From a virus (Duplodnaviria; Caudoviricetes), in the IMG/VR virus record IMGVR_UViG_3300033068_001067, positions 2,312 to 66,311 of that record: 64,000 nucleotides of DNA, one strand, 5' to 3'. The position numbers and the translations under genes are program-made. Below the pieces are notes generated by a model. That model saw only the letters and a list, made by a program, of their open reading frames with translations. It did not search any database and was not told the DNA's origin. This document shows, piece by piece, positions 5,971 through 61,828 of this stretch; the stretch's first letter is position 1; each line of letters starts with the position of its first letter.

Positions 5971-6385
5971 AGAAGAAATAGAACTATTAAAGGAAGAATT
6001 AAACAAAACATTTAGCCAAAGAAAAAGATTAGGTTCAATAGACTTTTACATGAACACTAATTTAATGGACACAAAAAAGTACAAAACAGCATACCAAAGA
6101 CAAGAGATATTGCGTAATTGGCAAAACGGAATAAGAGGGTTAATGGCGTCCTTCCACAAGTTCCATTATGTAATTAAAGACATTGAATTAATTGAAAAAA
6201 AGAGTCCATATAAACCCATAACCAACAGACCAATTAAAAAAAGAACACTAAACCCACACCCATTAAAACCAAAAAGAAAATACACAAAACCCGAACCAAT
6301 AAGAAGAAAAATAGAAGAACCAATCCCAAAAATAATCCGACCAAAAGGAGAATACTCAAACCAAAGACTGTATGATTATATTTAA
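5951..6385 (+). CDS. hypothetical basic protein
   Basis: ORF; K/R/P-rich C-terminus. Confidence 0.6.
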   Translation: MEIPITKEEIELLKEELNKTFSQRKRLGSIDFYMNTNLMDTKKYKTAYQRQEILRNWQNGIRGLMASFHKFHYVIKDIELIEKKSPYKPITNRPIKKRTLNPHPLKPKRKYTKPEPIRRKIEEPIPKIIRPKGEYSNQRLYDYI

Positions 6386-6402
6386 CCCTAAAACTTTTAA
6401 AA

Positions 6403-6642
6403 ATGGATAACGAAAAGCAAGCAACAACAATAGTTAGATTTAGAGAAGAACATCAAAGTTTTTTTGATTTTTTTGCAACAAAAGTAAATGTAGGCGAAGA
6501 TGAATACTATATGTTTCCTACTATCTATAAAAAATGGAAGAATTGTTTTTATGAACCTATATCAGTTGAAGATTTTAAAAAGATATTAGCTGAAAACAAA
6601 ATTGATTTAACTGAACAAATACTTGCAGACCAATGGAAGTAG
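6403..6642 (+). CDS. hypothetical protein
   Basis: ORF with A-rich leader. Confidence 0.6.
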   Translation: MDNEKQATTIVRFREEHQSFFDFFATKVNVGEDEYYMFPTIYKKWKNCFYEPISVEDFKKILAENKIDLTEQILADQWK

Positions 6643-36082: not shown

Positions 36083-36623
36083 TATTATTCATGGAAAACA
36101 AAGTAAGCGACTGCCAATATTATACAAAGAGTTATCAGAACAAGAGATAACCGATTTTGAGATATGGCAAGGGGTACATGATAGCAATTCAGTAGTACGT
36201 TCCATAAACCTATCTCACAAACAAATAGTACAAAACGCAAAAGATTTAGGGCTGCAAAAAGTTTGCATAGCGGAAGATGATATAATGTTCCTTCACCCAC
36301 AAGGGTATCAATATTTTTTAGAAAACGAACCCCAAACATACGATATGTACTTAGGGGGTATTTACTTAGGGGATATAAGAAAAGATTACACAGTAGAATA
36401 CTTTACAGGGATGCACCTATACATCATTCACGAACTATTCTATGATACATTTTTAAGCCTACCCGAACATGAACATATAGACAGGGCTTTATCGGGATTA
36501 GGGCTGTACAAAGTATGCAATAAGTTTGTAGCCATGCAGCATAATGGTGTTTCTTCAAACACAGGCAAACATGAAGTTTACGATAAATTTCTAAATAACA
36601 GACAAGTTTTTAATGGTTATTAA
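36072..36623 (+). CDS. glycosyltransferase family 25-like
   Basis: SINLSHKQIV...VCIAEDDIMF...YLGG...GMHLY. Confidence 0.65.
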   Translation: MKLNIIHGKQSKRLPILYKELSEQEITDFEIWQGVHDSNSVVRSINLSHKQIVQNAKDLGLQKVCIAEDDIMFLHPQGYQYFLENEPQTYDMYLGGIYLGDIRKDYTVEYFTGMHLYIIHELFYDTFLSLPEHEHIDRALSGLGLYKVCNKFVAMQHNGVSSNTGKHEVYDKFLNNRQVFNGY

Positions 36624-48833: not shown

Positions 48834-49262
48834 ATGGATTTACTATTAAAAAGAACGACTAAGACAGATAAAAGTACTATTGGTGAATTGTACATCAACG
48901 GTACATTTGAGTGCTATATTTTAGAAGATGTTGATAGGGGTTTATCTTCATCAATGCCTTTGGCTGAACTTCAAAAAAAGAAAGTGTATGCCAAAACAGC
49001 AATCCCAACAGGTAAGTATGAAATAGTAATTAGTTTCTCAAATCGCTTCAAAAAACTATTACCATTAGTTGCTAACGTACCCGCTTACGAAGGCATAAGA
49101 ATACATGCAGGTAACACAGCAGAACATACAGAAGGCTGTTTATTGCCCGGCACAAGTAAAGCCGCAAACTTTGTTGGGAATAGCAGAACTGCCTTCAATA
49201 ACTTATTCAAGAAAATACAGACAGCAGTTAAAAAAGAAAAGGTGTTTATTGAGATAGTTTAA
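48834..49262 (+). CDS. putative endolysin, DUF5675 family
   Basis: STIGELYING...TAIPTGKY...GIRIHAGNT...TEGCLLPG. Confidence 0.8.
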   Translation: MDLLLKRTTKTDKSTIGELYINGTFECYILEDVDRGLSSSMPLAELQKKKVYAKTAIPTGKYEIVISFSNRFKKLLPLVANVPAYEGIRIHAGNTAEHTEGCLLPGTSKAANFVGNSRTAFNNLFKKIQTAVKKEKVFIEIV

Positions 49263-49794
49263 GCGATACCAATTCCAACTTGCTTCTATACTCAATCAAT
49301 AATTCTCGCAAATCCGATACAGATAGCTTATTTATGGAGTGTGCCATTTCATCAACATACTCTAATGCTTCGGGGTGTTCTTTTTTTAGTCTATCCCTAA
49401 ATATTTCGGGGTGGGTCTCATGTTTTGAATTACATTTTGGGCATTGCACCCTCACTCCACCTTCATAATATCTGCTACCCATATCAGCCCTACTCCCTAC
49501 ATGCCCACATTGAGATTGCTTCCAATTCATAACTTCATCACAGGTATAACAACTAACTTCCCCCCTATTATTAGCATACTTAATTCTGATGTATTTTGAA
49601 AAAACTGCATCCAATTCATCCCTTAAATTAGCCCAACTTTCATCTGAAAAATCTCGTTCCATTCTCTTATCCGAAACCCTTTTAATAGGCTTATACCCTT
49701 TACTTGCACACATCTTGCATCTTCCCTTAGAGAAAGCGAAATCGTAATGCCCACAAGCTAACTGACGCTTCTTAGGTTTTATTGTTGAGTTCAT
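49246..49794 (-). CDS. ninG: NinG/Rap-like recombination endonuclease
   Basis: LDAVFSKYIR...CYTC...QCGH...QCPKCN. Confidence 0.8.
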   Translation of the reverse strand: MNSTIKPKKRQLACGHYDFAFSKGRCKMCASKGYKPIKRVSDKRMERDFSDESWANLRDELDAVFSKYIRIKYANNRGEVSCYTCDEVMNWKQSQCGHVGSRADMGSRYYEGGVRVQCPKCNSKHETHPEIFRDRLKKEHPEALEYVDEMAHSINKLSVSDLRELLIEYRSKLELVSLKLSQ

Positions 49795-50621
49795 AAACGG
49801 ATTTGATTAAGTGGTGACGGAGTTCTGCTGATTAAATTATGTGAAATGTGGGTATAAATTCGGGTCGTATTTAAGTTTTGATGACCGCATAGCTTTTGAA
49901 TTATTGAAATATCAGTTCCTTGTTCTAAAAGATGTGTCATAGTACAATGCCTAATTAAATGGGTATATACTCTTTTATTGATTTTTGCTTTCTCCGCTAG
50001 TTGCTTAATAACTTGACCTACACTTCTTTCTGAATATTGTAATTCATCCTTCCACCCATTTAGTACATACACTTTACTTTTATACTCCTTCCAATAATCT
50101 TCAAGCAATCCGATAACGGAACTACTTAGCATGACTTGCCTATCTCTTTTCCCCTTAGCTTGAATTACATTAATAATCATCCTACTTCTATCAATGTGTT
50201 CCCACTTCAAATTAATCAATTCTGAAACTCGCAAGCCGCAAGAATAAAGCAACCCTAAAATTACTCGATGTTTTTTATTGTCGCAAACATCAAACATTCT
50301 TTGTATCTCCCCAACTGATAAAACTATGGGTAATTTGTTCTCTTTTCGAGCATATTGAATGTATTTAAACTTTTGCTTTTGATTCATGCAAATGTCATAG
50401 AACTTTTTAATTGCACTATGGTAATTCCTTTGAGTATTAACCGTTGAAAATTTACACAAGAAATCTTTAATATCTTGTTCATTGATATTCTTTGGGTGGT
50501 CTTTATCCACTTTTGAGAAAAATACATCAATACATGAAGCATAATTATCAATAGTATTTTGACAGTAATTTCTACGTTTCATTTCTTGAATGAATCTACC
50601 CTTATGTTTACATATATTCAT
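49791..50621 (-). CDS. tyrosine recombinase (SAM-like N-domain + catalytic domain) adjacent to the cassette array
   Basis: LPIVLS; GLRVSE (R); AKGKRDR (K); HLIRH (HxxR); CGH (H); IYTH (Y); C-terminal SPL; no IntI-type ALERKY insertion. Confidence 0.93.
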   Translation of the reverse strand: MNICKHKGRFIQEMKRRNYCQNTIDNYASCIDVFFSKVDKDHPKNINEQDIKDFLCKFSTVNTQRNYHSAIKKFYDICMNQKQKFKYIQYARKENKLPIVLSVGEIQRMFDVCDNKKHRVILGLLYSCGLRVSELINLKWEHIDRSRMIINVIQAKGKRDRQVMLSSSVIGLLEDYWKEYKSKVYVLNGWKDELQYSERSVGQVIKQLAEKAKINKRVYTHLIRHCTMTHLLEQGTDISIIQKLCGHQNLNTTRIYTHISHNLISRTPSPLNQIRL

Positions 50622-51243
50622 AGTTTATAAATTTTAGTTTTTTTGGTTGGTTCATAACTTCTTTATAAAAGCACTTCAACGCAACTATGTGGGCATTCCT
50701 CGTATTTTTGTTTTTTATTAGTCCTATGTAATGCCTAATTTCATTTTGATTAATTTCTTTTGGCGACTTTTTTTTACCTTCAAATTCAGAAATAAACCTT
50801 TTAATGTATGAAATAAAATTTCTTTTGCTATTCTTTGAGTAAGAACTTTTCTCAAGGCAAAAACGAAATTTTGCTATGTAAATAGAGTTTTTCTTTACTC
50901 TGTAATAATTATTACCCCCACCTCCTAAATTCCCATTTAGTAAATTACTTATGCCTAATTTACTTATCCATTCCTTTTCTTTAAAACTTGCTTGTTCGGT
51001 TGGTACAGTTTCTAATACTTCAATTATGGGGAGTAACCCAACTATTGCTAATTCACGTATCCATAAATTTTTCTTTGAGTTAGTGCTATTTCTTTTTGAT
51101 ATATGTAAATAAAGCCTTTGCTTTATTGGCAAATACGTCTTGCCTATATACCTTATTGATTTAGTCAACGGGCATGAAAGCGAATAAATATAGGTTGTAG
51201 TTATATTCTGAATTAAATTAACTAACCGTTCAGAAGTAGGCAT
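50608..51243 (-). CDS. GIY-YIG nuclease fused to an integrase N-terminal (SAM-like) domain
   Basis: YIYSL...IRYIGKT...R...E...N; C-terminal half aligns by eye with residues ~5-90 of the neighbouring recombinase. Confidence 0.8.
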   Translation of the reverse strand: MPTSERLVNLIQNITTTYIYSLSCPLTKSIRYIGKTYLPIKQRLYLHISKRNSTNSKKNLWIRELAIVGLLPIIEVLETVPTEQASFKEKEWISKLGISNLLNGNLGGGGNNYYRVKKNSIYIAKFRFCLEKSSYSKNSKRNFISYIKRFISEFEGKKKSPKEINQNEIRHYIGLIKNKNTRNAHIVALKCFYKEVMNQPKKLKFINYEYM

Positions 51244-51272: not shown

Positions 51273-51301
51273 TAACGTGCGGGACATATTTTATGTTAAA
51301 T
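51273..51301 (+). other. candidate attI-like primary site (first GTT at 51295)
   Basis: Recombinase-proximal GTT with no attC hairpin before it; ACATA/TATGT mini-palindrome. Confidence 0.35.
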
Positions 51302-51340
51302 CGAAAGCCCTCCACAAAAGCCATCCCTTCGCTTTCGATT

Positions 51341-51434
51341 TAACGAGTAGGATTTTTTCCGTTTACGAAAGCCCTTCGGGCCTTCGTTTAACAATGGATT
51401 TTATCCATTGAAACGGAAAAAATCCTACTCGTTA
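51341..51434. repeat. attC-like site 0: perfect 24-bp inverted repeat with two internal hairpins
   Basis: TAACGAGTAGGATTTTTTCCGTTT / AAACGGAAAAAATCCTACTCGTTA. Confidence 0.8.
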
Positions 51435-61562: not shown

Positions 61563-61787
61563 TTAAAGTAAATGTTTGTAACTGTTTATTAAGTCGTTAA
61601 ATTGGTTCTGAAATTCAATGTGGGTATCAATATCAATATTTCTGCCTACTTCGTTATATCCTCCTAACAAACTATATAAGGCTTTAATTTGTAGCATGTT
61701 ATCCCTACCATTTGCGAACTTGTCATGTTCTAAGGAAATAGTAGTAACTGTCTTTTTAATGTCTAGTTTTTTTGCATGTGCTAACAT
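61563..61787 (-). CDS. hypothetical early protein
   Basis: ORF downstream of the repeated promoter motif. Confidence 0.55.
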   Translation of the reverse strand: MLAHAKKLDIKKTVTTISLEHDKFANGRDNMLQIKALYSLLGGYNEVGRNIDIDTHIEFQNQFNDLINSYKHLL

Positions 61788-61828
61788 AGCTTATGTTTTT
61801 TGGTTAAATGATAATGTAAAGATAAGTT

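Follow-up and report, generated by a model that had tools for sequence, protein, structure and literature searches.

In phages, cassette arrays are places at which accessory genes such as methyltransferases are exchanged. One such array raises the question addressed here: what is a gene that joins a GIY-YIG nuclease to a DNA-binding domain of recombinase type doing between the array and a tyrosine recombinase, and where did that DNA-binding domain come from? The DNA analyzed, hereafter called the window, is a stretch of 64,000 nucleotides from a Caudoviricetes virus (IMG/VR record IMGVR_UViG_3300033068_001067, positions 2,312 to 66,311).

Results

The fusion gene is an open reading frame of 211 aa with an ATG start (positions 50608..51243, minus strand), and its location between the hairpin array and the recombinase, described in an earlier note on this DNA, was borne out. 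It encodes, in order, a relic of a recombinase start, a GIY-YIG nuclease domain, a linker, and a recombinase-type core-binding (CB) domain. The adjoining recombinase is an intact small Xer/IntI-like tyrosine recombinase of 276 aa (49791..50621, minus strand) whose 5' end is occupied by the nuclease gene. It matches PF00589 (E 7e-35) and PF13495 in Pfam, scores 200 bits against the XerA/integron integrase model NF040815, which is under the cut-off of 220, and has more than 100 homologues in viral contigs. The two frames share 14 nt (50608..50621, minus strand), exactly as previously reported, and the fusion codons Y-E-Y-M-stop in this overlap include the recombinase ATG AAT. The same junction is present in the related phage locus L001 and in the remnant found in L002. 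A NinG/Rap-like junction endonuclease gene comes after the recombinase.

The nuclease domain (residues 16-104; 50932..51198, minus strand) was recognized from the PF01541 matches of homologues, from fold, and from conservation. The window protein itself gives no PF01541 match in Pfam, even at E<=1, so the GIY-YIG label given to it earlier holds by kinship and fold but not by its own Pfam score. Two homologues with the same architecture, P0003 and P0005, match PF01541 at E 1.2e-6, and profile A1 of the fusion family reaches PF01541-positive, NUMOD-bearing GIY-YIG proteins at ~1e-19. The closest proteins sharing the nuclease half only (E ~1e-19 to 1e-24) bear NUMOD1 or NUMOD3, the classical homing-endonuclease tails. 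No GIY-YIG structure emerged when PDB sequences were searched with the N-domain profile. An AlphaFold model of the fusion (pLDDT 82 overall, pTM 0.50) places the nuclease domain at high confidence (pLDDT ~85-94), with strands 16-23, 30-36, and 73-81 and the helices in between forming the fold of the I-TevI catalytic domain. Foldseek matched the model to that domain (1ln0 and 1mk0, prob 1.00, target-normalised TM 0.72-0.73), further fold matches were to UvrC and PD-T4-3, and those in BFVD were to phage "intron-associated" or GIY-YIG endonucleases.

The expected motifs are recognizable as IY(S) at residues 19-21 and YIG at 32-34. Across 19 members at 32-53% identity, G34, T36, W61, E89, and N103 are invariant and Y32, R43, and H47 nearly so. 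Candidate catalytic residues are Y20, Y32, R43, H47, E89, and N103, and the corresponding residues of I-TevI are Y6, Y17, R27, H31, E75, and N90; the Tyr, Tyr, Arg, His, Glu, Asn spacing is similar, and the two sets are presumably equivalent. The module probably belongs to the I-TevI/Seg-like clade, and it is predicted to be an active nuclease.

A Gly-rich flexible linker follows (residues 105-118; 50890..50931, minus strand), seen in pLDDT and alignment and carrying an invariant GGGG (the GG.G columns are invariant in the 19 members). Residues 106-114 fall below a pLDDT of 50, and the pTM of 0.50 is what would be expected for two independent domains. The modelled order is nuclease, flexible linker, DNA-binding domain.

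The C-terminal half is a four-helix CB (SAM-like) domain of the tyrosine-recombinase type (residues 119-208; 50620..50889, minus strand), as judged by PF13495, profiles, and fold. Residues 126-200 match PF13495 (Phage_int_SAM_4) at E 3.8e-8 and 34.1 bits, against a cut-off of 27, and an HMM built from the N domains of this recombinase family raises the score of the window domain from the 34 bits obtained with Pfam to 65.6; the CB domains of the fusions score 50-79 bits on it. By sequence profile, the domain resembles those of XerA (5hxy, E 1.6e-4) and the integron integrase IntI4 (VchIntIA; 2a3v, E 4.4e-3), and its fold superposes on theirs with an rmsd of 1.4-1.8 A over 83-92 columns, XerA being the nearer at 1.4 A. 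The earlier note had suggested checking the folds of both halves, and Foldseek matched each, the first to 1ln0 and the second to XerA. Unlike XerA and VchIntIA, the fusion has no catalytic domain after its CB domain: Pfam found no PF00589 domain with its R-K-H-R-H/W-Y residues, and the frame ends at the CB/catalytic boundary, so the protein cannot recombine DNA. Pfam likewise found no NUMOD or HTH match, the tail being filled by PF13495. Longer, three-domain forms were not found by search, which is weak evidence, and when the C-terminal domain alone was the query, every hit was a fusion.

Where this domain came from is a separate matter. The earlier note had read it as a copy of the N domain of the adjacent recombinase. 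The match is real (fusion residues 130-208 against recombinase residues 14-90, 33% identity over 79 aa, E 4e-11), but at that identity the domain is a paralogue drawn from the recombinase family and not a copy of its neighbor. An HMM of the fusion C domain scores other recombinase subclades at up to 82 bits vs 46 bits for the neighbor, and the CB domains of all 19 fusions form one clade (SH-aLRT 99), separated from the window recombinase's own subclade by a split with a support of 97. The tree came from a quick search on 115 columns with no outgroup, and the branch leading to the fusion clade is long. A recent tandem copy was rejected on the identity, the single clade, and the higher scores of other subclades. 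The phylogeny instead groups the fusion domains together inside the range of variation of this phage recombinase family, as would follow from an old capture.

The other end of the gene resembles a recombinase start. Fusion codons 1-13 (MPTSERLVNLIQN; 51205..51243, minus strand), which now supply the start codon and an N-terminal extension, match in register recombinase codons 1-13 of relatives that carry no homing endonuclease gene (HEG-less relatives) and are a relic of a recombinase gene's 5' end. The best match is 28/39 nt (L015), compared with a maximum of 24 among 5000 random 39-mers (mean 15.9, sd 2.2). Upstream of the L001 fusion the same comparison gives 19/36 nt, inside the control range, and no such relic is discernible there.

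Beyond the relic, at the end of the array, lies a palindromic conserved head motif (TTAACATAAAATATGT on the minus strand; 51284..51299), a candidate recombinase-type site. The pattern AAC-N3-7-TAT[GA]T precedes the recombinase ATG in 59/65 distinct HEG-less loci, and in 49 of the 59 its AAC falls in the -55..-51 bin (shuffled sequences gave 4). In the window, 54 nt separate this AAC from the fusion ATG, which is the usual spacing to the recombinase ATG in HEG-less phages; here, in L001, and in L088, the motif stands upstream of the fusion ATG instead of the recombinase ATG. Elsewhere in the window the motif is not significantly enriched (7 matches vs 3.8 expected; at least 7 in 14/100 shuffles). 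Directly upstream of it is the hairpin-rich terminal site of the cassette array (51302..51434, no strand assigned; inverted repeat I1), which is 76% identical to positions 3-119 of L034, where that sequence directly precedes the recombinase. The leader upstream of the fusion is homologous to the recombinase leader of L034. The possibility that the gene is itself an array cassette was rejected: it has no flanking AAC...GTT hairpin sites, and it is located within the recombinase 5' end.

The fusion is rare. Roughly 15 billion proteins contain ~19 with this architecture; the window protein has five close homologues that share it, with ~14 further clusters at 50% identity, and genomic context covers four members of the family. 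The gene was found only in the window, L001, and the phage record L088, with a remnant in L002; within IMG/VR, the full fusion occurs only in the window genome and L088, and apart from L088 the fusion profiles A1, A6, and A9 picked up no additional full-length fusion in viral contigs. A scan of genome contigs for the fusion returned only a recombinase-type N domain, in the Flavobacterium MAG L090. Among 80 recombinase loci from viral contigs none has a GIY-YIG domain; 53 of these loci are distinct and have 700 nt or more of upstream DNA, and the fusion gene is present in 0/53, although all retain arrays and recombinase. Even within the subclade of the window recombinase it is present in L001 and absent in L009, L010, L017, L023, and L054.

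Some copies are degenerate or independent of the recombinase. L002 keeps only the last 42 fusion codons and a truncated recombinase, P0018 has lost the Arg/His helix through an internal deletion, and the L088 record has a fusion without any recombinase. The fusions of the window and L001 share 53% identity, compared with 76% for their recombinases, indicating that the fusion diverges faster. Syntenic relatives differ in having or lacking the gene at one site, and decayed copies exist. These data do not bear out the co-occurrence with arrays in related phages that the earlier note had proposed as a check: the gene is at none of the 53 loci and occurs once without a recombinase. Its suggestion of an accessory factor acting at att sites was to be abandoned if the fusion were absent from most related arrays and did not bind att sites, and the gene is absent from 53/53 loci with at least 700 nt of upstream DNA. 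Its fallback, a one-off duplication scar, is contradicted by ~19 diverged members that keep both domains and the catalytic-type residues, and by a CB domain that forms a single old clade.

Discussion

Almost all related phages lack the fusion, and it is located in the recombinase start, so the gene most likely parasitizes the locus as a mobile element and does no work for the cassette system; the data give no support to a core accessory role. We lean toward a free-standing homing endonuclease of the I-TevI/Seg-like GIY-YIG type with a new DNA-binding module, of which the activity and the homing would both be predicted properties. A homing endonuclease that had captured a DNA-binding domain was among the earlier proposals, and the nuclease kinship, the layout, the sporadic distribution, and the decay all fit it; we infer the nuclease activity, the target site, and homing itself.

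Such an element could have arisen when a NUMOD or helix-turn-helix tail was swapped for a CB domain captured long ago from small Xer/IntI-like recombinases, which would serve the cassette arrays of Flavobacterium-type phages. The gene lies within a duplicated recombinase 5' end, where it uses the recombinase leader, start-codon position, and first 13 codons. The 14-nt overlap at its end restores an intact recombinase start, which should leave the recombinase functional, and translation of the two genes is probably coupled. During co-infection, the CB domain may bind a recombinase-type site near the array head or in the recombinase 5' region of an HEG-less phage, and the tethered GIY-YIG domain would then cut close to the bound site. 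Repair from the HEG-carrying genome would copy the gene, and probably neighboring cassettes too, into the recipient.

Known systems offer partial parallels. Like I-TevI and I-BmoI, the fusion begins with a GIY-YIG domain (~90-100 aa) that a flexible linker joins to a C-terminal DNA-binding module. Unlike them, it is not intron-encoded, has no zinc finger, and ends in a tyrosine-recombinase CB domain instead of a NUMOD or helix-turn-helix; its linker of ~14 aa is much shorter than that of I-TevI, so the distance of the cut from the bound site would be constrained. The Seg genes of T4 resemble it in being free-standing, in or beside a conserved phage gene, sporadic among syntenic relatives, and harmless to an intact host gene. 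Seg proteins, however, have NUMOD-type tails and their genes lie between genes, whereas the fusion reads on in frame from 13 initial codons of its host gene, and one of its domains derives from that gene's family.

Several observations speak against homing, among them the missing Pfam GIY-YIG match of the window protein and the short linker. The head motif is intact in HEG-carrying genomes, which would create a self-immunity problem if the motif were the target. Conservation of the CB domain equals or exceeds that of the nuclease domain, and the fusion gene is tightly coupled to the recombinase; a cooperative role would account for both observations as well. An optional accessory nuclease of the cassette system, which we regard as unlikely, would use its CB domain to bring the GIY-YIG domain to the recombinase's sites (folded hairpins or the head site), possibly inside the recombinase-DNA complex, where nicks or cuts would stimulate cassette excision, capture, or exchange or process junction intermediates. 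Consistent with this, the CB domain is a strongly conserved paralogue specific to this recombinase family, the gene lies at the array head beside the conserved motif, its overlap with the recombinase start implies co-expression, and a gene for a junction endonuclease of the NinG/Rap type follows. A contributor to cassette movement would nevertheless have to be dispensable at all 53 distinct loci with enough upstream DNA, where arrays and recombinase are kept, and would have to account for a phage record with a fusion and no recombinase (L088), for decayed copies, and for a nuclease module of the homing-endonuclease type.

It is rather unlikely that the recombinase-derived head aims the nuclease at the recombinase's own sites so that its cuts at the array head drive wholesale exchange of neighboring cassettes between co-infecting phages; the target might be folded hairpins or a mixed complex that includes the recombinase.

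We consider it quite improbable that the protein serves in competition between phages, cutting the array sites of co-infecting relatives and degrading rivals with no requirement for self-copying. Related phages have many recombinase-type sites per genome, which a CB-derived module would recognize, and one report places free-standing phage nucleases at the boundaries of genetic exchange between phages (PMC10448857). The carrier genome has the same kind of sites, however, so an exclusion nuclease would need self-protection, none of which is evident, and homing better accounts for the constant location at the recombinase start. Much of this reading overlaps with the homing endonuclease in any case, since marker exclusion is a by-product of homing.

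Very improbable is a non-catalytic regulator or decaying remnant, in which the CB domain would occupy recombinase sites and repress or modulate recombination or its own promoter while the GIY-YIG half is vestigial: the window domain is too diverged for Pfam, P0018 lacks the Arg/His helix, and I-TevI is an autorepressor at an operator resembling its own homing site, but members at 32-53% identity have kept Y32, R43, H47, E89, and N103 with few or no exceptions, and the nuclease domain is modelled at a pLDDT of ~85-94.

Also comparable are the "unorthodox" GIY-YIG proteins of the HEase cluster, which have no NUMODs and bear other domains (Dunin-Horkawicz et al. 2006, PMC1564403), as does the fusion. 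The term "integrase" does not occur in that survey, and its single mention of "recombinase" concerns HNH nucleases in general. Full-text literature searches returned no paper combining GIY-YIG with a core-binding domain.

Homing endonucleases are modular, and to our knowledge only a few module types (NUMOD, helix-turn-helix, AP2, and zinc fingers) serve as their DNA-binding tails. The tail described here is a tyrosine-recombinase CB domain, and the family that supplied it is that of the gene at whose locus the element sits. If our reading is correct, it would represent a new natural way of targeting a GIY-YIG nuclease, a selfish element that has recruited its host gene's own DNA-recognition module, and a candidate cause of recombination at phage array heads. 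The binding site of the nuclease's head domain may also reveal the site recognized by the phage recombinase. Should the cuts indeed promote wholesale cassette exchange, the selfish nuclease and the cassette recombinase would together form one diversification machine.

Domain architecture of the fusion

The fusion ORF (50608..51243, minus strand; ATG start, 211 open codons) overlaps by 14 nt the next gene, which encodes a 276-aa tyrosine recombinase (49791..50621, minus strand; PF00589, E 7e-35; PF13495, E 6e-12). This in turn is followed, with a 4-nt overlap, by a gene for a NinG/Rap-like junction-specific endonuclease (49246-49794, minus strand; PF05766, E 4e-7; phrog_5034, E 6e-18). Fusion residues 126-200 match PF13495 (Phage_int_SAM_4) at E 3.8e-8, which exceeds the curated cut-off, and residues 130-208 are 33% identical to recombinase residues 14-90 (BLASTP, E 4e-11). 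The coordinates, overlap, and domain similarity reported in an earlier note on this DNA are therefore correct. Because the catalytic domain is missing, the fusion is not a recombinase.

The fusion protein itself had no match to PF01541 at E≤1, and PHROGs and NCBIfam gave nothing significant for its N-terminal half. The two-domain layout recurs in five metagenomic homologues (49-53% identity across 91-100% of the length), two of which match PF01541 (E 1.2e-6). A search of 1.84 billion cluster representatives with a six-sequence fusion profile brought up, beyond the fusions, thousands of proteins that aligned to profile positions ~1-110 only. The nearest of these nuclease-half-only proteins (E 1e-19 to 1e-24) carry PF01541 plus NUMOD1 or NUMOD3, tails that are classical for homing endonucleases of the I-TevI/Seg type. 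In an AlphaFold model of the fusion (mean pLDDT 82, residues 106-114 below 50), residues 16-96 form a three-stranded sheet with flanking helices, and the pTM of 0.50 indicates that the two domains are predicted to be placed independently. A Foldseek check of both halves, which the earlier note had proposed, matched the sheet region to the I-TevI catalytic domain 1ln0 (target-normalised TM 0.73), the nuclease half further to the UvrC GIY-YIG domain and the GIY-YIG restriction enzyme PD-T4-3, and the C-terminal half to XerA (rmsd 1.4 Å) and VchIntIA. The top named fold matches in BFVD were phage GIY-YIG or intron-associated endonucleases. The GIY-YIG label first given to the N-terminal half is thus borne out by the PF01541 matches of its homologues, its NUMOD-bearing profile relatives, and its fold, in place of a PF01541 match of its own.

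In an alignment of 19 fusions, G34, T36, W61, E89, I93, N103, and the GG.G columns do not vary, Y32, K35, R43, and H47 hardly vary, and wherever the region of the first motif is present its IY is retained. By inferred residue equivalence, the spacing Y20-Y32-R43-H47-E89-N103 parallels the I-TevI series Y6-Y17-R27-H31-E75-N90. Judged from its sequence, the nuclease is probably active.

Origin of the core-binding domain

In a collection built from ~15 billion proteins, ~14 clusters at 50% identity span both domains at E<1e-30; the fusion family is real, diverged, and rare. A longer form combining nuclease, core-binding (CB), and catalytic domains was looked for and none was found, which is weak evidence. 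When the N-domains of 63 related recombinases from phages were made into an HMM, the fusion C-domains scored 50-79 bits against it, including 65.6 for the window protein, which scores 34 bits on the generic Pfam model (PF13495). Pairs of N-domains inside the recombinase family are 31-97% identical (median 46%), and the C-domains of the six closest fusions are 31-42% identical to their best-matching recombinase N-domains.

A CB-domain tree from a quick maximum-likelihood search (115 columns, a long fusion branch, and no outgroup) groups all 19 fusion domains in one clade (SH-aLRT 99), and a 97-supported split separates this clade from the subclade of the window recombinase. Recombinases from other subclades also score higher on the fusion C-domain HMM (82 bits for locus L040 and 76 bits for L005) than does the adjacent recombinase (46 bits). 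The clade, the split, and these scores point to a single, old capture of the CB domain from the recombinase family, and a recent copy of the neighbour's N-domain is rejected on these results and on the 33% identity. The earlier note had taken the C-terminal half for a copy of the recombinase N-domain; the similarity holds, but its derivation from the adjacent gene does not, given the separate, old clade.

Distribution among related loci

A recombinase profile gave 102 matches (50-75% identity), of which 80 viral-contig loci were retrieved, and three more loci were added. The GIY-YIG half had no match among six-frame ORFs of at least 40 aa from the retrieved recombinase loci, and every retrieved recombinase matched the fusion C-domain HMM solely through its own N-domain. 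Room enough for the gene, meaning 700 nt or more ahead of the recombinase start, is present in 53 of 66 distinct loci, and the gene is absent from L009, L010, L017, L023, and L054, which belong to the window recombinase's own subclade. IMG/VR was scanned three more times with fusion profiles, over records other than the window's own, and a full fusion turned up in L088 only.

Most family members are without genomic context, which is known for four: the window, L001, L002, and L088. L001, a 1.5-kb metagenome contig, carries the fusion and then an overlapping recombinase; compared with the window, the recombinases are 76% identical and the fusions 53%. L002 (635-905) retains the fusion's last 42 codons and a recombinase cut off after ~43 residues, and its sequence is that of a decayed locus. 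A NinG-like gene comes directly next in L002, as in the window, which is not so in L003. L088 is a 75,207-base viral record with terminal repeats. Its 189-aa fusion (5992-6561) lies where a hairpin-site array ends, and nowhere in the record was a recombinase of the same family found. The metagenomic homologue P0018 (176 aa) has a 24-residue deletion that removes the nuclease helix with R43 and H47, and from its sequence is probably an inactivated copy; P0021, P0027, and P0047 look like truncated or frame-shifted fragments. A recombinase-type N-domain match was also seen in L090 (6001-6237), a 452-kb contig of a MAG assigned to Flavobacterium sp. (NZ_JBKBOL010000002.1). The match may come from a related recombinase of a prophage or host chromosome, which gives a hint of the host range.

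Placement of the fusion gene

The array end carries a partly palindromic head motif, usually TAAC-ATA-NNN-TAT-GTA. As AAC-N3-7-TAT(G/A)T, it precedes the recombinase ATG in 59 of 65 distinct related loci without the fusion (HEG-less loci), versus ~4 loci when upstream sequences are shuffled. Across L003-L087 it lies ~50-56 nt upstream of that ATG, with the AAC in the -55..-51 bin in 49 of the 59 motif-bearing loci; it may serve the recombinase gene as an operator or be the recombination site at the array end. The window copy (51284-51299) instead has its AAC 54 nt ahead of the fusion ATG, not the recombinase ATG, and the fusion ATG is 89 nt downstream of the motif in L001 and 81 nt in L088. 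A short relic ORF in L088 begins ~55 nt after the AAC, the canonical position. Two more exact AACATA-NNN-TATGT copies (36335-36349 and 61783-61797) occur far from the array, and the head-motif count in the window (7 versus 3.8 expected) is not above chance.

Upstream of the head motif is the terminal hairpin site (51302-51418), which, together with the leader to the fusion ATG, is homologous to the region directly ahead of the L034 recombinase. Over its first 39 nt, MPTSERLVNLIQN, the fusion ORF can be aligned in register to codons 1-13 of the recombinase genes in HEG-less relatives (e.g., MNISEH..NFIQE), at best at 28/39 positions; 5000 random 39-mers from the same strand reached a maximum of 24 (mean 15.9, SD 2.2). 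A similar relic in L001 lacks statistical support (19/36). At the fusion 3' end, the Y-E-Y-M-stop codons hold the ATG AAT of the intact recombinase gene, a junction kept in L001 and L002. Head-motif spacing, leader homology, codon relic, and 3' junction together place the fusion gene inside a duplicated recombinase 5' end, where it has taken over the native leader and start while restoring an intact start to the recombinase.

Proposed function

The best-supported reading, and one we consider probable, makes the fusion a GIY-YIG homing endonuclease of the free-standing type whose DNA-binding module is new. The earlier note had offered a homing endonuclease with a captured DNA-binding domain as one option, and the sporadic distribution, decayed copies, and NUMOD-type nuclease relatives favor it; a homing-endonuclease life cycle predicts scattered occurrence at a single site, copies in decay, and a gene that diverges faster than the one beside it, as seen here. 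The note's other option, an accessory role at att sites, is disfavored by the absence of the gene from the 53 distinct related loci with room for it, a distribution that the note had named in advance as counting against the idea. That the fusion serves the cassette system as an optional accessory nuclease would fit its tight coupling to the recombinase, but is unlikely given the sporadic distribution and the presence of the fusion in L088, whose record has no such recombinase. Exclusion of related phages, a role that overlaps largely with homing, is less likely still. The conservation of catalytic-type residues makes a non-catalytic regulator or remnant the least credible explanation.

As a homing endonuclease, the fusion would act by analogy with I-TevI and Seg proteins, although no NUMOD or helix-turn-helix tail like theirs is present. 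Its C-terminal domain would dock onto DNA and the nuclease attached to it would cleave close by, the linker of ~14 residues giving short reach only. Since the recombinase family of this very locus supplied the binding module, a recombinase-type site is the likely target, one that in HEG-less phages would lie close to the recombinase 5' end or to the array head. If the head motif were that target, self-immunity would call for an explanation, as genomes that carry the HEG keep this motif intact. Free-standing homing endonucleases often cleave well away from their insertion point, and the fusion junction therefore does not fix the cleavage site.

A 2006 survey of the superfamily describes NUMOD-bearing "orthodox" and assorted "unorthodox" homing endonucleases; the word "integrase" is absent from it, and "recombinase" appears a single time, where HNH nucleases are spoken of in general terms (PMC1564403). 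No paper combining GIY-YIG with "core-binding domain" was found by full-text search, and GIY-YIG with "SAM-like" and "integrase" returned a gut-virome study and a GmrSD analysis, whose titles concern other subjects.
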